Source: Alphaproteobacteria bacterium (lineage in GTDB: Bacteria; Pseudomonadota; Alphaproteobacteria; SP197). From it: DNA of 64,000 nt. A model generated the notes under the pieces. It did no database searches, was not told the DNA's origin, and saw nothing but the letters and a program-made list of their open reading frames with translations. Both the position numbers and the translations under genes were made by a program. The stretch spans positions 416,001-480,000 of the forward strand of contig OZ219920.1 of the NCBI GenBank assembly GCA_964291415.2. The letters run 5' to 3'. Within the stretch, counting starts at the first letter, position 1. The number at the start of each line of letters is the position of its first letter. Shown here piece by piece: positions 7,080-16,803 of the stretch.

Positions 7080-7711
7080 TCACGGGCCGGGCAGCGAACG
7101 GTACGACATGGCTGATGCCGGCGGTTCGGCGGTCATGTCCCGTCCGATCTGCCGGGCCATGGCGAGCCAGGCCGGACGCGCGTCGCTGTCGTCGTCCACT
7201 CCCGGAAAGACGTGCATGGCAACATCGTCGATGCCGCAGTAGCCCAGGACGCCGACGTCGATCGAGCGGCGCATCGCCTCCTGGTAACCATAGCGCCGAT
7301 AGGTGGCGGCGGACGACCCGGCGGAGCAGAGCAGAACGGCCTGCTCCAGTGCCAGAAGGCCGCGGGATTGCCGGATCGTGAAATCGTAGGCCCAGCCCTG
7401 GCACCACACCCGGTCGATCCAGCCCTTCAGCATCGCCGGAAACGACCACCACCAGACGGGGAAGACGAAGGCGATGGCCTCGGCGCGCATGACGCGCTCC
7501 TGCTCGTCGAGAACGTCCGGGGGCATTGCCGCCGGCCCCTTCGTGAACTGGGCAAAATCGTCCGGGCGGAACCGCGGATCGAATCCTTCGCCGTGAAGGT
7601 CGGCCAGTTCCCATGCATGGCTGGCATCCTCAAGCCCTGCAAGGAACGCATCGAGAAGCGCTCCGGTGAAGGACTCCCTTTGGGATGGCAAAAGATCGTC
7701 AGGACGCGCAA
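7080..7711 (-). pseudogene. NAD(P)H:quinone dehydrogenase (flavodoxin_2 family) with a 1-nt frameshift near 7680
   Basis: TTG start gives MRVLTIFCHPK in one frame; RESFTGALLDAF...FPVWWWSFPAMLKGWIDRV continues in the -1 frame at CCCAAAGGGAG. Confidence 0.8.
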
Positions 7712-7885
7712 CGTGTTCCCGCTCGTGACCGTCGACGGACATTGTAGGCACCTGTGCGCCGTTTCGCACATCCAGATGACCTCGTCCTGACAAGGAGTCA
7801 TGTTTCGATGAGCGATGCCGCGACATCCAAGCGAACGACCTGTCGGCGCTGCCGGGCCTGCTTCTCCGATGTCAAGGTCGGCACG

Positions 7886-7999
7886 ATGACGCCGGGCGAG
7901 ATCGTCGCAAAGCGGCGGGCAGCACAGCCCAAGGAGCGCTCGCCATTGCAGGAGTACATGATCGACCTGTCGCATCTGCCCGGTGTCAAACCCGACTGA
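7886..7999 (+). pseudogene. Degenerate N-terminal remnant of an MmeI-like (type IIG/IIL) restriction-modification enzyme
   Basis: MTPGEIVAKRRAAQPKERSPLQEYMIDLSHLPGV resembles the family N-terminus MTP.EFI.KW....KERS..QEHFIDLC.LLG, then stops. Confidence 0.55.
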
Positions 8000-8162
8000 A
8001 AATCTGTCGCTTCCGCTTTTGCTCTGTCCTCCCGGGCGAGTGCGTCGATGAAGTGACCCACAGCGGGCGGCTCGCACCGAAGTCGTAGTAGGCGGTGGTG
8101 ATCATGATCCTTCTTTCTTCCGACTGGGCTCGTGCGCCCGGTCGCACGACCTCGGACTTCGC

Positions 8163-8189
8163 GTCTTCGTCGACCGGGTCGACGAAGAC
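8163..8189. repeat. Perfect palindrome/hairpin
   Basis: GTCTTCGTCGACC-g-GGTCGACGAAGAC, 13-bp arms. Confidence 0.75.
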
Positions 8190-8277
8190 TCGACCTTCGA
8201 TGTGCAGACGCCGCGCTCCTACGCGGGTGCCCCTGGAAGCTTCTGGTCGGCGTCGGTTCCGAGTTTCTTCGACCCTG

Positions 8278-8680
8278 TCACAGGGCGGCGTAGACGGCCT
8301 CGATCATGCGTTGGCGACGGATCCGCAGCTCCTCACTGCGGCCGAGCATCCGGTTCATGACAGAGGCGACGCCGAGGCTCGTGTCCGGATCGGCGAAGGC
8401 GCCACCCCAGCCGTTGTGGCCGAATGACAAGGGATCGGGATCCTGCGGGTTCTCTTGGTTTGCGAGTACGAAGCCGGCACCGAAACGGCAGAGTTCGTTG
8501 AGAGAGTCGTCCATGCCGTCGAAGCGCTCGGCTGTCGCCCGGGCGACGGCCCGCCGGTGAGATCAGGCCTCCGCCGCCATGGCGACAGCCAGTGCCAGGA
8601 CACCCTTGCTCGTTGACCAGATGTTGGCCAGCATGTCGTCCCGCCACGGCACCGTCTGATCCCTGTGGTAGACCATTTCA
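8278..8680 (-). pseudogene. Serine hydrolase (beta-lactamase/EstB family) remnant with a large internal deletion
   Basis: One fragment carries PWRDDMLANIWSTSKG (SxxK motif). The other carries SFGHNGWGG...FADPD...VMNRM...IEAVYAAL. The middle of the protein is missing. Confidence 0.7.
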
Positions 8681-8783
8681 ATGCGCGGTCTCGCTATGTG
8701 CCTCGACAATCGCGGGTGCTGTCGATGTCGACAGGCGTCCAGCTTCGCGGATCCCGCAATGACCCGGGCGAAGGATCCTGTGT

Positions 8784-8999
8784 TCAGCTCTCCCGACGGC
8801 CTCCACCGCCGCCATCGGACGACGATGACACAGATTTTCGTCCGCTGCTTCCCTGATTGGGCGGATTGGAGGGCGGGCTGCTCGGAGACGCCTCGCTGGT
8901 GGCAGGCCGATGCCCGCCGATCACGCCGGGGGCGCCGACGGTTCCGGGCTGATAGCCTTTCTCCACGGTGGAGGGCCTTGGTCTATCCGGTCTCGTCAT
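8784..8999 (-). CDS. Small Pro/Ser/Gly-rich peptide (71 aa) coupled to the DUF6338 gene
   Basis: ATGA overlap with the upstream stop and a GGAGG RBS inside the upstream gene end. Motifs KGYQP, GGHRP, NPPNQGSSG. Confidence 0.6.
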   Translation of the reverse strand: MTRPDRPRPSTVEKGYQPGTVGAPGVIGGHRPATSEASPSSPPSNPPNQGSSGRKSVSSSSDGGGGGRRES

Positions 9000-9613
9000 C
9001 GTGTTTCCTCCATTGGCGAGTAGCGCCAGAACTCAATCGACTGAATCTCACCTGCGGCAATGAGGACTCCCTTCTCATTGCTCGTCGTCCAGTTGTTGTC
9101 GTCGTCCACATCATAGATCCACTGGATGTAGATATCACGCTCGCTGGGTTCGGAGGACATGAACGAGTTCTTCCCGCAGAATCCGGCGAAGCGGGTGCCG
9201 TCCTTGAGGGTGACGAGAACCCACTGTTCGGGCATGCCGGAGAACTTCCAGTCCCAGGCAGTCGGCATGACGTGGACCGGATTGAGACCCATTCGCTGCA
9301 GCAGGCCCCGCACCAGGTTGCGTTGCACGTCGATCCCCAGCAGGAGGCCAAGGAGTGCCGGCCCGAGGATCACCAGCGCGAACCACGTCACAACAGGGTA
9401 GGTCCCGGACATGACGACGAGCGATTCGAGCTCAACGAACGGAAGCGCGAGTGCATAGTAGATGACCGACACGGTCAGATAGCTCAGCAGCGAATCCGAA
9501 TGGGACGGGCGCCGCCCGGCCACGAACTGCGATCGAACGAACAGCACGATGAGGCCCGGAACGATGAATCCCAGGGTCAAGGCGACGTCGTCGAACGAAA
9601 CGGATTCCAGCAC
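8996..9613 (-). CDS. DUF6338-like membrane protein
   Basis: Three N-terminal hydrophobic segments starting IVPG, then AWDWKF, WVLVTLKDG...G, SF.SS....RDIYI and GVLI....IQSIEF. Family recognised from memory. Confidence 0.75.
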   Translation of the reverse strand: MLESVSFDDVALTLGFIVPGLIVLFVRSQFVAGRRPSHSDSLLSYLTVSVIYYALALPFVELESLVVMSGTYPVVTWFALVILGPALLGLLLGIDVQRNLVRGLLQRMGLNPVHVMPTAWDWKFSGMPEQWVLVTLKDGTRFAGFCGKNSFMSSEPSERDIYIQWIYDVDDDNNWTTSNEKGVLIAAGEIQSIEFWRYSPMEETR

Positions 9614-9909
9614 GGATCAGAGGGTCCCGATCCCAACAATTGAGCCAGGCGACGCAGACCATGCCACCATCTCGTGGTGAATTCCATGGGACGGCGGACC
9701 CGGCTCCGGCACGCTACTTCAGACCTTCCCTCAAGACACGAGCCACGCGACTGGAACGGAACCAGACTATCGCTCCCCGGGGGCGTCTGCATGAACATTC
9801 CCGGCGTTCTTGCGTGAGGAGAGGCTTGTGTCACGACGCGGGGTGTGTTCTGAAACAGGAAAGTCCTGTGACTGTGTATCTTGACCTGCCAACCGCTGGA
9901 GGAATGCGA

Positions 9910-11127
9910 ATGGTCAAGGAAAGCGATCTGAGCGAGGCGTCTCGCAATTCCTTCCTGACTCAATACACGTTCGAGGTGTTCGAAGATCGGCCATGGACCG
10001 AACCGCCGCCGAAGTCCGAAAGACGCGTGGCGATCGTGTCCACGGCGGCCATCCATGCGCCCGAAGACCAGCCGTTCGGATTCGGTGCCCATGATTTTCG
10101 GACCTTTCCGCGAAACCAGCGGCAGTTCCTGTGCAGCCACAATTCCGTCAACTGGGATCGAACCGGCATGATGCGTGACATCAATGTCGCGTATCCGATC
10201 GACCGGCTCGAGGAGATCTGCGAGGAAGGCGGCGTCGGCTCCGTGGCCGACCTGCACTACGCTTTCAACGGCGGCACCGATGACGTCGCCAAGTATGAGG
10301 CACACGCCAGGCGAGCCGCGGCCGCGATGAAGGCCGACGGCGTCAACACGGTCGTACTCGTTCCCGTCTGACCAGGATGCACGCGCGCCGTGGGCGGGCT
10401 TGCACATTATCTGGAGCGGGAGGGACTTGCGACGGTCAACATCGCCCTGGTCTACAGGCACGCCGCTGTCGCTCAACCCTCACCACGCGCCCTTTGGGTG
10501 CCGTTCTGGTATGGTCGCCCCCTGGGCGCGCCGAACGAGCCCGCGCTGCAGCGTCGGGTGCTGAACGCCACGATGGCGTTGCTCGATGAACCTGGCGACA
10601 GGCTCTTGAAGGAGTTTTCGCAAGATGCGCCGCCGACGGCAGGCGCGTTGGATTGGCGGCCGCCATTTGATCTGCCGCGCGTTGAAGAAGATGGCGATCG
10701 CAAGGCTCTGGCAGACGCCTTGCGCGATGAAGTCGCCATCATGGCGGCTCGCCACGAAGAGGCGAAAGCCAGGCGGAACAGCAGTTTCGTCGGGCTGAGC
10801 GGACTCTCCCTGGCAGGCGTTGCAGACGTGCTCATCGGTTTTCTCCACGCACGCGAAGAGACAATCACGTCGACCAATCGCCCCGGCCTTGCCTTGAAGT
10901 TCGGTGCGCAGGAATTGGTTGACGCCTATGCGGAATGCGTGATCGCGGCCGGCGGCGCGGACTCGCCCTTTGGGTTCCGCCGCTGGTACTGGCACGAGAC
11001 GACGGCGGGTTTGACAGTGCGCCACCTGGCCGAAATCGCGAAAATCTCGACTGACTATCGGGCCCGGATGGCTGCGCGCTTCCAGTCCTTGCTCCCCAGA
11101 GAATGGGACTTTGTGCCTGGTTCCTGA
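9910..11127 (+). CDS. Selenoprotein of the PrdB/GrdB (proline/glycine/betaine reductase selenoprotein B) family; Sec at TGA 10369-10371 (U154), 405 aa
   Basis: ORFs 9640..10371 and 10390..11127 are in the same frame. Read-through gives VVLVPV-U-PGCTRAVGGLAHYLEREG (UxxC). GGAGGA RBS before ATG 9910. PrdB-like N-terminus (RVAIVST, DINVAYPIDRL). SECIS-like hairpin follows. Confidence 0.88.
10372..10405 (+). promoter_or_regulatory. Bacterial SECIS-like stem-loop
   Basis: TGCA-c-GC-g-CGCC[GTG]GGCG-g-GC-t-TGCA (10378-10404). The G-starting apical loop lies about 19 nt 3' of the UGA. Confidence 0.72.
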
Positions 11128-11399
11128 CTGAAGTCTGACGTGTGCCGAGGAAAGGCGCGCGCCAGACTGCAGTTGGCGCATGCTGAGTGAACTGCGTCGG
11201 GTCCCTTCCGTCAGGGGACCGGTCTCCTCGAAGACCGCTCGCACCGCGGCAGCCCATCACAGGCCGTCTCGAAGACGGGCGTATTCTGGACGCCCACCGC
11301 GCCGGGCGAGTCGGGCCATGGGATTGTGGTTGAAGTTGACGGGCGTCGCCAGGGGACGCCATATTGGCTGTGGTCCAGCGAGTGGGGAGAGCCTCCATC

Positions 11400-11819
11400 G
11401 TGGTTCCGACACGCAGGGATGTCTTGCTGGCGAGCGCGTCCATCGTCGGCGCCGCGCTGATCCCCGTCGGCGTGGCCCACGCCTCGAACAACGTCTTCGA
11501 GGCGATTGACGCGTTCACCGGCGGCGCGCCGCGCCTGGAAGGGGGCATGCTGATCGATGCGCCGGAAATCTTCGACAACGGCGGCGCTGTGCCGATCCGG
11601 GTCGTCGCCGAGGGTGCGCGGCGCATCGCGCTCTTCAACGACGGGAACCCCAATCCCGGCGTTGCGGTGTTCTCGTTCGGCAGGCTCGTGCGGCCGGAAG
11701 CGACGATCCGTATCCGCCTGGCCCGCAGCCAGACCGTGTATGCCGTGGCGGAAATGGCGGACGGCACGTTCCGCGAGGCGTCCCAGAAGATCGCGGTGAC
11801 GGTCGGCGGCTGCGCCTGA
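11400..11819 (+). CDS. soxY: Sulfur carrier SoxY
   Basis: Tat signal TRRDVLL, GNPNP, IRIRLARSQ, C-terminal arm VTVGGCA. GTG start chosen after a GGAG. Confidence 0.88.
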   Translation: MVPTRRDVLLASASIVGAALIPVGVAHASNNVFEAIDAFTGGAPRLEGGMLIDAPEIFDNGGAVPIRVVAEGARRIALFNDGNPNPGVAVFSFGRLVRPEATIRIRLARSQTVYAVAEMADGTFREASQKIAVTVGGCA

Positions 11820-11829
11820 GGAGCGGGCG

Positions 11830-12156
11830 ATGGCGGAACCCAGGCCGCGCGTGAAGCTGCCAAGGTCGATCGAGGCGGGCGTCCCGTTCACGGTCAAGAC
11901 CCGCATCACCCATCCGATGCACACGGGGGAGCGCCACGACAGCGACGGTGTGCTCGTGCCCCGCCAGATCATCAATCGCTTCGAGGTGAGCTACAACGGC
12001 GAGCTGGCGATTTCCGTCGATCTGGAGCCTGCGGTCTCGGCCGATCCCTACGTCCAGTTCGAGATGGCCGTACCGGAATCGGGCCATCTGGAATTCCAGT
12101 GGTTCGACGATGATGGCTCCGTCTACAGCCTCAGCAAGCGGGTTGACGTCGACTAG
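11830..12156 (+). CDS. soxZ: Sulfur carrier SoxZ
   Basis: KPRVK-like start, THPMHTGER, PRQIINRF, PAVSADPY, WFDDDG. Confidence 0.92.
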   Translation: MAEPRPRVKLPRSIEAGVPFTVKTRITHPMHTGERHDSDGVLVPRQIINRFEVSYNGELAISVDLEPAVSADPYVQFEMAVPESGHLEFQWFDDDGSVYSLSKRVDVD

Positions 12157-12898
12157 GGCCGCCGCGCGACGTCGGCCGGCGGGCCTTGCGGCATGTCTGG
12201 CCTCGGGGCTGCTCGCGTTGACGCTGCTGCTGGTGTTCCAGGCCGCCGGCGTATGGAGCGACGACGGCGACCGCGGCAAGGAGCTTTTTGGCCAGTGCAA
12301 GCGCTGCCACCAGGTGGGCAGCGGCGCGGCGCATCGGATCGGCCCTCACCTCAACGATGTCTTTGGCCGCGCTGCCGGCTCGCTCGCAGGCTTCCGCTAC
12401 TCTCCAGCGATGCGCAAGGCCGGTGCCGGCGGCCTGGTCTGGGACGATGCGACCCTCGATGCCTTCCTTGCCGATCCGAACGCCTTTGTGCCACGCTCGC
12501 GCATGAGCTTCGCTGGCATGGAGGGTACGGACGACAGAGCTGCGCTGCTTGCGTGGCTGCAAGGCTATTCCGGCGGCCGCGCCGATCTGCCGCCAGCGGA
12601 GCCAACGGCCACGCCCGAGGAATACGGCCTCGATCCCGCGATTCTCGCCATGGCGGGAGACCCGGAATACGGCGCCTATCTGGCGGGAGAGTGCACCACC
12701 TGCCACCGGACGGACGGCGCCGACAAGGGCATTCCCTCGATTGTGGGATGGCCGGTCGACGACTTCGTGATAGCCTTGCATGCCTACAAGCGAGGAACGA
12801 GGGTCCATGCCGTGATGCAGATGGTGGCTGGGCGCTTGTCGGACGAGGAGATCGCCGCCCTCGCTGCACATTTTCAAGAGGCGGAAGGCAATCCGTGA
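12143..12898 (+). CDS. soxE: Diheme cytochrome c, SoxE-like (start uncertain)
   Basis: Two heme motifs (CKRCH, CTTCH), signal/anchor segment, located between soxZ and soxF. Confidence 0.8.
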   Translation: MTSTRAAARRRPAGLAACLASGLLALTLLLVFQAAGVWSDDGDRGKELFGQCKRCHQVGSGAAHRIGPHLNDVFGRAAGSLAGFRYSPAMRKAGAGGLVWDDATLDAFLADPNAFVPRSRMSFAGMEGTDDRAALLAWLQGYSGGRADLPPAEPTATPEEYGLDPAILAMAGDPEYGAYLAGECTTCHRTDGADKGIPSIVGWPVDDFVIALHAYKRGTRVHAVMQMVAGRLSDEEIAALAAHFQEAEGNP

Positions 12899-12915
12899 AC
12901 CAAGGAGAGCGAGTG

Positions 12916-14202
12916 ATGCGCAAACAGAACGGAAAGAGTGATCTGAGCCGCCGTGGATTCCTTGCATCCGCGGCCGCAGCGACAGCGGCGGCATCGGCGC
13001 CAGCGGTGCTCGCCGAGGGGCGCCCCCGCGTCGTGGTCGTAGGCGGAGGCGCGGGCGGCGCGACGGCTGCGCGCTACATCGCCAAGGATTCGAATGGTGC
13101 CGTGGACGTGACGCTCGTGGAGCCGAGTCGTACCTACTACACCTGCTTCTTCTCGAATCTCTTTATCGGTGGCTTTCGCGAGTGGGCGTCGATCGGACAC
13201 AGCTACGGCGCGCTGGCAGCCAATCACGGCATCAACGTCGTGCACGACTGGGCGGTCTCCGTCGACCGCGACGAGCGGAGCGTCGGGCTCGCCGGCGGCG
13301 GCAGCCTCGCCTACGACCGCCTCATCCTGTCGCCCGGCATCGACTTCCGTGACGGCTCGGTTCCCGGTTGGGACCTGTCGCAGCAGAATCGCATGCCGCA
13401 CGCCTACAAGGCGGGCTCGCAGACTCAGCTTCTGAAGGCGCAGATCGAGGCCATGCCGGAGGGCGGCACCTATTGCATGGTGGCGCCGCCCAATCCGTTC
13501 CGCTGCCCGCCGGGGCCCTATGAGCGGATCTCGATGGTGGCTCACGTGCTGAAGCAGGCCAATCCGACGGCGAAGATCATCATCGTCGATCCCAAGGAGA
13601 AATTCTCCAAGCAGGGGTTGTTCGAAGAGGGTTGGCAGCGCCATTACCCCGGCATGATCGAGCGCATCGGCCCGGACTTCGGCGGCGACATGGTCGAGGT
13701 CAGGCCGGAGGCCATGGAGGTCGTGGTGGACGGCGAGGCCATGAAGGTGGACGTCTGCAACGTCATCCCGGCGCAGCAGGCGGGGCGCATCGCGGCGGCG
13801 GCGGGCATCACCGACGACTCCGGCTGGGCGCCGATCGTGCCGCACACCATGCAGAGCAGGGCCGACGAGAACATCCACGTGCTGGGCGATGCCGCGCTGC
13901 AGGGCGATATGCCGAAGTCGGGCTTCTCGGCCAACAGCCAGGCGAAGGTCTGCGCCATGGCGGTGCGCGGTGCGCTCACCGGATCCTCGGTGTTCCCGCC
14001 GCGTTTCTCCAACACGTGCTGGTCGCTCATCGCCACCGGCGACGGCGTCAAGGTCGGCGCCTCCTACGAAGCGACAGACGAGAAGATTGCCAAGACCGAT
14101 GGCTTCATTTCCCAGACCGGGGAAAGCGCGGAGCTGCGCCAGGCGACCTACGAGGAGTCGCTTGGCTGGTACGACGGCATGACCGCCGACATGTTCAGCT
14201 AG
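12916..14202 (+). CDS. soxF: Flavocytochrome c sulfide dehydrogenase flavoprotein (SoxF/FccB)
   Basis: Tat signal SRRGFL, GGGAGG FAD motif, FRCPPGPYER, MPKSGFSANSQAK, NTCWS. AGGAG RBS. Confidence 0.93.
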   Translation: MRKQNGKSDLSRRGFLASAAAATAAASAPAVLAEGRPRVVVVGGGAGGATAARYIAKDSNGAVDVTLVEPSRTYYTCFFSNLFIGGFREWASIGHSYGALAANHGINVVHDWAVSVDRDERSVGLAGGGSLAYDRLILSPGIDFRDGSVPGWDLSQQNRMPHAYKAGSQTQLLKAQIEAMPEGGTYCMVAPPNPFRCPPGPYERISMVAHVLKQANPTAKIIIVDPKEKFSKQGLFEEGWQRHYPGMIERIGPDFGGDMVEVRPEAMEVVVDGEAMKVDVCNVIPAQQAGRIAAAAGITDDSGWAPIVPHTMQSRADENIHVLGDAALQGDMPKSGFSANSQAKVCAMAVRGALTGSSVFPPRFSNTCWSLIATGDGVKVGASYEATDEKIAKTDGFISQTGESAELRQATYEESLGWYDGMTADMFS

Positions 14203-15229
14203 GCCCGCCGGCGGCGAGGCGCAGGCCGACCGCTCTCGCAGAGACCGCCATGGCCGCCAGCGCCAGCAGGGCGGCAAGGCTTGCCGTCGAGACGCCGGAA
14301 AGACCGGCGCCGACGGTGCAGCCGCCCGCCAGCACGCCACCTGTGCCCATCATCACCGCGCCGGCGAGGTAGCGCCCGGTCTGCCGCGGCCCTTCCAGGC
14401 TCCGCCACTGGAACTCGCCTGCCGCCAGCGCCGCGGCCAGGCTGCCGAGAAGGACGCCCGCCACGAGGCCGGTGCCGAAGCCTGCCGGTATCGAGGTTGC
14501 CGCCACGGTCCAGAACAGCGTGTCGGCCATCGGCCCCGTGAAGCCCATGGACTGCACGGGGATTGGATCGAAATCATCCAGCAGCACAAGGCCCGTGCCG
14601 ATCCAGCCCAGCGGCACCAGCAGCCCGATCGCGCCCGCCATGGCCAAATGGGAGATTTTCGCGCGCGAGAGGAGCGCGCAGACGAGCGCCGCGCCCGCGA
14701 TCAGGAGCGGCCAGACCTCGCCACCGGGCCAGGCCGAGAGCGCCACCGCATCGCCTCCGGGAAGGGTTGCGTCGCCGAGCGCCTCGCGGACCGGCGCCAG
14801 CGCGCCCTTCATCACCGCGTGGGCCGTGATGGCGAAGACGACGAGGACGAGCAGGGCGCGCAGATTGCCGGTGCCGACCAGCACCGTGAGCCGTGAGACG
14901 CAACCGCCTGTCAGCACCATGCCGGCCCCGAAGAGCGCACCTCCCAGCAGTGCGGAAGCGACCGGCAGGTCGGAGGAGAGAAACCGGTGTGCCTCGAAGG
15001 AGATCAGGTCAAGGGCGACGGCCAGCCGGGTGCCGACAATTGCGCACGCGAGCGCCATCACCCAGGTACCCAGCGCCGGCAGGCAGTCGCGCCACTGACC
15101 CACCAGGCTGCGGCGCAGGCAGAAGGCGCTCCGCTGTGCCAGCGCACCGTAGGCGCAGCCCAGCACCAGACCCAGCAGCACGGAGGCCCCGAGCGGCGTC
15201 AGTTCCTCGAATCCCAGCTCCTCGAACAA
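14195..15229 (-). CDS. YeeE/YedE family sulfur-compound transporter (SoxT-like)
   Basis: FCLR, GMVLTGGCVSR and GGVLAGGCTVG conserved Cys motifs; multiple TM segments. Confidence 0.9.
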   Translation of the reverse strand: MFEELGFEELTPLGASVLLGLVLGCAYGALAQRSAFCLRRSLVGQWRDCLPALGTWVMALACAIVGTRLAVALDLISFEAHRFLSSDLPVASALLGGALFGAGMVLTGGCVSRLTVLVGTGNLRALLVLVVFAITAHAVMKGALAPVREALGDATLPGGDAVALSAWPGGEVWPLLIAGAALVCALLSRAKISHLAMAGAIGLLVPLGWIGTGLVLLDDFDPIPVQSMGFTGPMADTLFWTVAATSIPAGFGTGLVAGVLLGSLAAALAAGEFQWRSLEGPRQTGRYLAGAVMMGTGGVLAGGCTVGAGLSGVSTASLAALLALAAMAVSARAVGLRLAAGGPS

Positions 15230-15385: not shown

Positions 15386-16387
15386 TCAGCCCGGCTTGCG
15401 CGCCTCGTGGAAGTACATCGGGGTGAAGATCCCGAGGCGACCGGCCGCCACCAGGCTGTCGGCGGCGCCGTTGAGAACTTCCGATACAGCGAACGATCCC
15501 TTCGGCACGGCGCGCACGGTCTCGAGCAGGCGGAGCGCCGTCGAGGTGACCCTGCGGCCGAGCGCCGTCCGCGGAAATCCCTTGAGCGTCAGGCCGTTGC
15601 CTTCCAGCGGTCGGTACCACGGCGTCGCGGGATCAGCGTCGAATGCGCGGTCACGCGTCTCGATGCTCTCGAAGCCGGTCGCGCGCAACCCGTCACAGAC
15701 CTCTGCGAAGGAAGCGATTTCCGGCAGAGCGTTGCCGCACTCGATGCCCTTCTTGAGCTCCTGGTGCACCGGGTCGCCGCTGTCGTAGAGCGAGGTCATG
15801 CACCAGTCGTAGCCGGCGAATGCCGCCCCGGGACGCAGCACCCGGAATATCTCGCGATAGACCGCCGTCTTGTCGGGTGCATGAGGGATGGCCTCGACAT
15901 GGTAGGCTGCGTCGAAGCTCAGGTCCTGCGCCGGTATCGCCATGAAGTCGCCGTGGAGCACGCTGCACAGATCCTCGAGCCCGGCCTGGCCGTTGTAGGC
16001 GGCACACTTGCCGATCTGGTACTCGCTGATGTTGAGCCCGACGATCTCGGCGCCGAATCTCCTGGCGAGGGCGCGCTGGGGACCGCCCACGCCGCAGCCG
16101 ACATCCAGCACCCGCATGCCGGGCGCGAGCCCGAGGGCCTTGCCCAGGTAGTCCTGGTGGTCGGCCATGGCTTCCTCGAAGGATGCCCCGTCCCGTGCCG
16201 GGGCGAAGTGAAACGACTGGCCCCAGCCGTACTCGTAGAAATCGGTGATCAGGTCGTAGAACGTCTCCACCATGGCGGCATGTTCTTGCCTGCCCCGGCG
16301 CTGGCTGTCGCGGTAGCGCGCCAGCACGTCGGCGGTGTCCTCGGGCCGGACCGCCCGGGAGATCGGGTTGTGGAACTCAGTCGCCAT
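15386..16387 (-). CDS. Sterol C-24 methyltransferase (ERG6/SMT-like)
   Basis: YDLITDFYEYGWGQSFHF, LDVGCGVGGP, EA..HAP, YDWCMT, IECGNALP, PWY.PL, GIFTPMY. Start MATEFH. Confidence 0.9.
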   Translation of the reverse strand: MATEFHNPISRAVRPEDTADVLARYRDSQRRGRQEHAAMVETFYDLITDFYEYGWGQSFHFAPARDGASFEEAMADHQDYLGKALGLAPGMRVLDVGCGVGGPQRALARRFGAEIVGLNISEYQIGKCAAYNGQAGLEDLCSVLHGDFMAIPAQDLSFDAAYHVEAIPHAPDKTAVYREIFRVLRPGAAFAGYDWCMTSLYDSGDPVHQELKKGIECGNALPEIASFAEVCDGLRATGFESIETRDRAFDADPATPWYRPLEGNGLTLKGFPRTALGRRVTSTALRLLETVRAVPKGSFAVSEVLNGAADSLVAAGRLGIFTPMYFHEARKPG

Positions 16388-16803
16388 GGCCAAATGCTCC
16401 GCACGGGCGTTCGGCAAGCCCGTCAGGTTGGAAGTATCCGTACCGCGCACACATCCTGCCCGGCGTGTCGTCTTCCGCAACCCCCGGAGGGCTTCGCCGG
16501 CAGATCTTCCCCTGCCAGATCGCCACGTCCGGTTCCCGATTGAGCAGGACACCGGGATCCGGTGGGCAGCGAACCGGCGGCAGGTCACCCGCCGCTTCAG
16601 CGGTTCAACCGGGGAGTGGGTCCGGAACATCGCTATCTCGCCGATGCCGGGTACGTGGAAATCGAACTTCATGAGACTCCCCGGGCCAGGAAAGGTGATC
16701 GACGCCCTGGATCGCGTATTCTCGAGGACCGGTTTCCCCTATGCTCTGTCAAATGTATATCAGTGGTGGAAACCGCCTTCATTACAATATGATAGAGCAG
16801 ACC

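Follow-up and report, generated by a model that had tools for sequence, protein, structure and literature searches.

The stretch of DNA analysed here (the window) comprises 64,000 nucleotides of one contig from an apparently sponge-associated alphaproteobacterium, whose genome is a metagenome-assembled genome (MAG) of 4.44 Mb in 5 contigs, rated 100% complete with a contamination of 8.99. Judged from its sequence, the plus strand between 9910 and 11127 very probably carries one gene for a 405-residue selenoprotein, a long form of the PrdB-like family that is neither a D-proline nor a glycine reductase. The following features were assigned to the locus, all on the plus strand.

9898..9903, plus strand: Shine-Dalgarno-like GGAGGA, 6 nt upstream of ATG 9910, as read from the sequence
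9910..11127, plus strand: predicted long-form stand-alone PrdB-like selenoprotein gene, 405 codons and a TGA stop
10006..10638, plus strand: N-terminal alpha/beta domain, PrdB-homologous core, residues 33-243 (TIGR04483, AlphaFold2)
10369..10371, plus strand: in-frame UGA, predicted selenocysteine U154, motif PV-U-PxC; TGA column conserved in relatives
10369..10380, plus strand: UxxC redox motif (U154-P-G-C157), which opens helix 155-170 and follows strand 147-151 (DSSP on the AlphaFold2 model)
10372..10414, plus strand: outer stem (10372-10376 paired to 10410-10414), confined to the window copy and its closest relatives
10378..10404, plus strand: conserved SECIS-like hairpin of 10 pairs, kept in 74 distinct family sequences
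10642..11124, plus strand: C-terminal all-helical domain, residues 245-405 (about 160), conserved throughout the family and without counterpart in the PrdB model

Within 9700-11400 on the plus strand the frame opened by ATG 9910 runs to the TGA at 11125-11127, and its sole internal stop is the TGA at 10369-10371. The two open reading frames 9640/9910..10371 and 10390..11127 share this frame and are parted by that TGA alone, just as had been stated in an earlier reading of the sequence. Decoding of the codon as U yields the 405-residue product with VPV-U154-PGC157, which contains the V-U-P-G-C predicted there for the read-through. The first residues of the homologs align as MV(K/R). Residues P152, V153, U154, P155, C157 and T158 around the motif are invariant in the family alignment. 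At the aligned end of the gene the relatives have TAA or TAG in place of the terminal TGA of the window gene. Because the window gene ends in TGA, this codon also serves as an ordinary stop codon of the source genome.

The conservation of the internal TGA was assayed in several sets of relatives. A match was present in 35 of 61 related genomes, and of the 50 matches with E <= 2e-46, 49 contained an in-frame TGA; the one without it, in genome G042, has TGC at the Sec column. The TGA falls into a single column, within the motif PV-U-PxCT(R/C)AV, in each of the 22 homologs of the alignment, and the sequence is conserved before and after it, the C-terminal part included. A wider scan with one genome per species yielded 252 relatives, and inspection of the TGA site in the best 80 of these 252 loci revealed TGA in 80 of 80. 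The scan used two search patterns, one of which would have favoured Cys codons. Of 16 full-length proteins inspected from the database (379-419 residues), 15 have Cys at the site, and the motif is missing in the remaining one (P0092). The comparison of TGA and Cys among homologs thus came out as the sequence-only reading had anticipated, with TGA as the rule and TGC in G042. The hosts of the relatives are Alphaproteobacteria and Rhodospirillaceae MAGs, Desulfobacterales, the Olavius Delta 1 symbiont, Dehalococcoidia/Chloroflexi, Nitrospinota, Gemmatimonadaceae and Gammaproteobacteria, with Desulfobacterota and Gemmatimonadota among the phyla. The named Alphaproteobacteria MAGs among them agree with the alphaproteobacterial host that had been supposed from the letters. 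One locus (L111:4001-6900) holds a tandem pair of family members with TGA in the UPxC motif of both.

The public gene calls list the halves only and TGA is a normal stop in the source genome, as would be expected if two separate genes or a pseudogene were present, i.e. if TGA 10369-10371 were a true stop and the ORF from GTG 10390 were translated alone or never. A nonsense mutation, however, is not expected to persist at a single column in all 22 and again in all 80 homologs from several phyla while others have Cys, and the alignment to the PrdB model runs directly over the stop. In addition, the genome has the machinery for selenocysteine: selA (521 bits), selB (383 bits) and selD (270 bits) all scored above their curated cut-offs, and a single tRNA-SeC lies at C1:1063305-1063400. 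The selA/selB/selC/selD set, for which the earlier reading had proposed a search, is thus complete. We consider two genes or a pseudogene extremely unlikely.

An assembly or sequencing error that hides a real TGC or TGT, or a frameshift nearby, has to be weighed because the source is a MAG with a contamination of 8.99. A contig of 1311 nt assembled from the public run X1, at a depth of 26, spans 9922-11232 and departs from the window at 4 positions, all outside 10369-10371; run X1 is possibly the source sample and hence perhaps not independent of the assembly. Reads with TGC or TGT had been named beforehand as evidence against selenocysteine, and this assembled contig shows TGA. Orthologs of the window gene at 89-90% identity in two other genomes have the TGA too, which speaks against an error. 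Its probability appears negligible, and a single gene with an internal selenocysteine codon is the reading we follow below.

A SECIS-like hairpin behind the TGA had also been claimed, and this claim is borne out by conservation (86.9% pairing in 74 sequences) and not by stability (z -0.67). An initial set of 20 relatives and a larger one of 74 distinct family sequences both keep the hairpin at 10378-10404. In the latter set 86.9% of cells in columns 19-45 are paired, compared to 28-44% with the 3' side slid. The apical loop spans 10389-10393 in most of the family and 10390-10392 where pair 30-34 forms, as it does in the window copy. Two loop bases, G10390 and U10391, are invariant and correspond to +22 and +23 from the U of UGA. 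The SECIS of E. coli fdhF is a hairpin directly behind the UGA whose apical loop carries a G and a U some 20 nt on, and the family hairpin is close to this geometry. Most of its pairs are invariant: four never vary, and two change on both sides, one of these in a single sequence. Pair 25-39 is C-G in 58, U-A in 15 and broken in 1 of the 74 sequences and amounts to one covarying pair. The overlapping protein-coding constraint contributes to the invariance of the pairs. Folding of the window hairpin gave -35.6 kcal/mol with a z of -0.67, i.e. it is not more stable than shuffled sequences.

A constraint at the RNA level was further indicated by the synonymous codons. In homolog pairs less than 60% identical, synonymous-codon identity peaks in the sliding segments of codons at the TGA with 0.72 against a gene mean of 0.48. 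The segment with 0.72 contains the TGA column, which is identical by construction; segments that start just after it have 0.64-0.65 and are still among the ten highest. The peak points to an RNA constraint beyond that of the protein. In the outer stem (helix 1) 57% of cells pair, so that this stem is no feature of the family. A search of 10300-10500 against Rfam (E <= 10) returned no SECIS family and two chance matches on the opposite strand. In a separate observation, the 32 nt at 10378-10409 were the only stretch where contigs from a paralog in runs X1 and X2 match at 90% identity or more; it represents the SECIS core, where the DNA of the gene family is conserved best.

The likeness to PrdB and GrdB that the sequence-only reading had recognised was confirmed with curated models. 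The NCBIfam model of PrdB (TIGR04483) aligns residues 34-226 with its positions 26-219 across U154 at E 1.2e-25, and the score of 90.3 bits is below the curated equivalog cut-off of 300. The Pfam model GRDB (PF07355) aligns residues 71-151 with positions 267-345 of 347 and scores 28.6 bits, above its cut-off of 22. TIGR01918 matches from model position of about 270 with 36.3 bits and is below its cut-off of 65.45, and all models of GrdB/GrdF/GrdH and the selenoprotein-B subfamily (TIGR01917/TIGR01918) stayed under the NCBIfam cut-offs. Because the models of the superfamily match and the scores lie below the cut-offs, the protein is a member of the PrdB/GrdB superfamily and none of its characterised equivalogs.

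The comparison with the individual enzymes leads in the same direction. With PrdB of the clostridial D-proline reductase (TIGR04483) the window protein shares the homologous core and Sec at the matching UxxC place. It differs by its length of 405 residues, since the model has 238 positions and covers a core of about 240 residues only, which leaves residues 245-405 outside. PrdA is normally adjacent to PrdB, whereas the genome of the window protein is without a PrdA match (in a search that had no positive control), and its host reads as a sponge-associated alphaproteobacterial MAG and not as a Stickland fermenter. With GrdB, GrdF and GrdH of the glycine, sarcosine and betaine reductases the likeness consists in the Sec-flanking region, which falls on the C-terminal part of the models; the N-terminal 270 or so residues of GrdB are lacking and no GrdA was found.

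A pyruvoyl partner, which the earlier reading had missed in the window, was not found in the whole source genome either. PrdA/GrdE (PF09338) had 0 matches in this genome, rated 100% complete, and none in 14 control genomes either; GrdA (PF04723) likewise had 0 matches in the whole source genome, and the 14 control genomes were also without a match, so that there is no positive control. Among the conserved neighbours of any clade no PrdA-like gene was found. That neither the pyruvoyl partner PrdA/GrdE nor GrdA was found in the genome argues against a D-proline or glycine reductase. Could the protein nonetheless be the B subunit of a true D-proline (or glycine/betaine) reductase, with an unrecognised or distant pyruvoyl partner elsewhere? 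PrdB is the best family match, some full-length Cys forms bear the JGI label 'D-proline reductase (dithiol) PrdB', and the PF09338 search lacks a positive control. Against this stand the scores (90.3 vs 300 bits for TIGR04483 and 36.3 vs 65.45 for TIGR01918), 405 residues vs a model of 238 positions, the empty PF09338 and PF04723 searches in a genome rated 100% complete and the lack of a PrdA-like conserved neighbour in any clade. Thus a reductase B subunit is very unlikely. The different reaction suggested by the earlier reading is plausible, since the protein falls outside the PrdB equivalog by its score, its length and the lack of a partner match.

We then considered the domain architecture of the protein. 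AlphaFold2 on an alignment of 17 sequences modelled the full protein with a pLDDT of 84.9 and a pTM of 0.87. In the model U154 is located between strand 147-151 and helix 155-170 according to DSSP. The junction of a strand with a helix is the usual place of a redox-active CxxC-type motif. A wide structural comparison of the N-terminal domain returned generic Rossmann-like matches only (SDR, LacI) with Z of 8-9.3. The about 170 extra C-terminal residues pointed out by the earlier reading correspond to a domain of about 160 residues that is conserved in the family, with W249, G295, W359, W361 and P396 invariant. Folded alone, this domain was modelled with a pLDDT of 84.1. A Pfam search with 20 C-terminal domains gave no match below E 0.06, and the best hits of a wide structural comparison were designed or generic helical bundles with Z up to 5.6. 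Foldseek with the whole model and with the C-terminal domain retrieved nothing from the PDB at E <= 0.001, and the family profile found one chance match among PDB sequences (E 0.19) and no solved relative. Generic structural matches of this kind (Z 8-9.3 and Z 5.6) are no evidence for a new fold.

The size of the family was estimated by a profile search of 1.84 billion representatives, which gave 3451 matches at E <= 0.001, 443 of them at E <= 1e-30. The best 150 of the 3451 matches were mostly C-terminal halves of 235-255 residues that start at about profile position 160. The downstream halves dominate the best 150 because gene callers stop at TGA. In a separate database search for the window protein 19 of 19 matches were partial pieces; the window gene itself is mis-split in public annotation. 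Members are named 'D-proline reductase (dithiol) PrdB' (JGI) or 'hypothetical protein' by their sources, and a Cognatishimia protein of 415 residues is a 'glycine/sarcosine/betaine reductase selenoprotein B family protein' in UniRef and hypothetical at NCBI.

The PrdB model detected exactly three copies in the source genome, with 76-95 bits and one TGA each. Besides the window gene these are two paralogs identified by the model.

C2:282890-284002, strand not given: paralog of the window gene
C1:1065599-1066711, strand not given: paralog of the window gene, referred to as paralog 3 below

In a FastTree of 89 members, which has local support only and several long branches, the window copy falls into a clade of 10, apart from the other two paralogs. 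Its fellows in this clade are the 89-91% orthologs, two relatives at 64-65% and a group at 45-48%. A TnpB/IS605 OrfB-like gene with a Cas12f1-like TNB domain is found about 1.6 kb downstream of paralog 2 (L035:12162-13394).

The clades of the family differ in their gene neighbourhoods, which were counted in sets of 21 and of 80 loci, the latter being the best 80 of 252 relatives. In the clade of paralog 3 an amidohydrolase gene lies upstream on the same strand in 10/21 and 16/80 loci, a gene for a Pyr_redox_2-SelD fusion is convergent in 11/21 and 21/80 loci, and DUF917/S-Me-THD genes are conserved neighbours. In the source genome paralog 3 is part of a selenium cluster at C1:1063305-1068186 (L036:7100-12000), which consists of tRNA-SeC, the 745-residue Pyr_redox_2-SelD fusion, the convergent PrdB-like paralog, the amidohydrolase and then two divergent S-Me-THD/DUF917 genes. 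The tRNA-SeC gene immediately precedes that of the SelD fusion. The same layout was met in 10-11 of the 21 and 16-21 of the 80 loci. A further clade has a family III CoA-transferase on one side and a D-2-hydroxyacid dehydrogenase on the other in 13/80 loci.

No conserved operon partner was found among the neighbours of the window's own clade. A flavodoxin-like gene (7080-7826, minus strand) and soxY (11364-11819) were considered as partners and rejected, being syntenic only in near-identical genomes; the relatives at 65% and 46% have other neighbours (2-hydroxyacid dehydrogenase, SDR, EamA, HIT). Just downstream of the window gene lies a sulfur-oxidation cluster (11364-15229) with SoxY (11364-11819), an ORF of 108 residues at 11830-12156 that may encode SoxZ, an FCSD/SoxF-like flavoprotein gene (12193-14202) and, encoded on the minus strand, Sulf_transp. 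Upstream, about 1.8 kb (approximately 7826-9640) including a DUF6338 gene (8996-9613, minus strand) separate the flavodoxin-like from the selenoprotein gene, and the orthologous loci in genomes G006 and G019 lack this segment at the corresponding position. An ORF of 428 residues at 15386-16672 (minus strand) combines SAM-methyltransferase domains with Sterol_MT_C (E 4e-21) and would be a bacterial sterol-methyltransferase-like gene in an apparently sponge-associated alphaproteobacterial MAG.

A hint of expression came from the sponge metatranscriptome X2, in which contigs matched 9708-10087, 10449-10807 and 10835-11136, i.e. both halves of the gene. In X2 no RNA contig was seen over 10088-10448 or bridging the TGA. 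RNA libraries of this kind can contain DNA.

The novelty implied by the sequence-only reading was overstated, as UxxC selenoproteins named 'proline reductase PrdB' have been listed in surveys as stand-alone genes since 2005 (PMC1088965, PMC2398784, PMC1976440). In the Sargasso Sea set 'Proline reductase (PrdB)' with its 42 genes ranked third in abundance among the known selenoprotein families (PMC1088965, 2005), and the GOS survey counted 235 PrdB genes under pfam07355 (PMC2398784, 2008). According to these two surveys PrdB-like selenoproteins are among the most abundant selenoprotein families of marine samples (PMC1088965, PMC2398784). Five PrdB genes were assigned to the Olavius delta-1 symbiont (PMC1976440, 2007), and PrdB is listed in Anaeromyxobacter and Geobacter (PMC1794560). 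We found a long-form family member with TGA (L109) in the database record of 'Olavius sp. associated proteobacterium Delta 1'. The PrdB genes of the surveys resemble the window gene in Sec within UxxC, likeness to pfam07355, occurrence in symbionts and marine bacteria and faulty annotation at the TGA codon. The window gene fits this type by its UxxC Sec and pfam07355 likeness, and no Stickland partners were found in its genome. The survey passages on PrdB give no length, domain make-up or partner analysis. In the relevant passages of two reviews PrdB and GrdB are listed and stand-alone forms are not set apart (PMC13188914, PMC9312934), and those of PMC9751293 do not treat stand-alone forms. 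A literature search, which did not extend to supplements, found no paper on partner-less PrdB-like forms or their C-terminal domain. We concluded that the window gene belongs to the catalogued stand-alone PrdB-like family of marine and symbiont bacteria, of which it represents the long form of about 400 residues. Added here are this long form and the domain at its C-terminus, the presence of three paralogs in a single genome and a paralog clade next to a SelD fusion gene. Useful as they are, neither the C-terminal domain nor the three paralogs nor the neighbourhoods that set the clades apart make this a new kind of system.

How could the protein operate? SelB with Sec-tRNA(Sec) would read UGA 10369-10371 as selenocysteine, and the hairpin at 10378-10404, to go by its conservation, would guide the recoding. 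The product is predicted to have two domains, a PrdB-like alpha/beta core with U154-x-x-C157 and the conserved helical C-terminal domain. By analogy to PrdB and GrdB the selenol may attack a substrate or a protein disulfide, Cys157 would resolve the adduct with formation of a selenenylsulfide, and a thiol system, e.g. thioredoxin, might re-reduce the latter. From the same analogy the protein most likely works as a selenol/thiol redox enzyme.

A more far-reaching idea is that the form of about 400 residues acts by itself as a selenium-dependent reductase in aerobic bacteria of the sea and of sponges, and that the C-terminal domain replaces PrdA/GrdE in holding the substrate. We regard this as speculative and rather improbable. 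If it were true, Stickland-type reductive cleavage of C-N or C-X bonds would occur outside anaerobic fermenters, and the different paralog clades would serve different substrates. As a hint at these, the amidohydrolase, DUF917/S-Me-THD and SelD fusion neighbours of one clade would suggest cyclic amides, and the CoA-transferase and D-2-hydroxyacid dehydrogenase neighbours of another 2-substituted acyl-CoAs.

Reading of the UGA as selenocysteine corrects a systematic annotation error, as most of the best 150 database matches are halves cut at this codon. Three paralogs of the family coexist in a single sponge-associated alphaproteobacterial genome, and a Sec codon was present in every locus examined. 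Taken together, the clade-specific neighbourhoods and the conserved C-terminal domain provide handles on the function of PrdB-like proteins in oxic marine bacteria.
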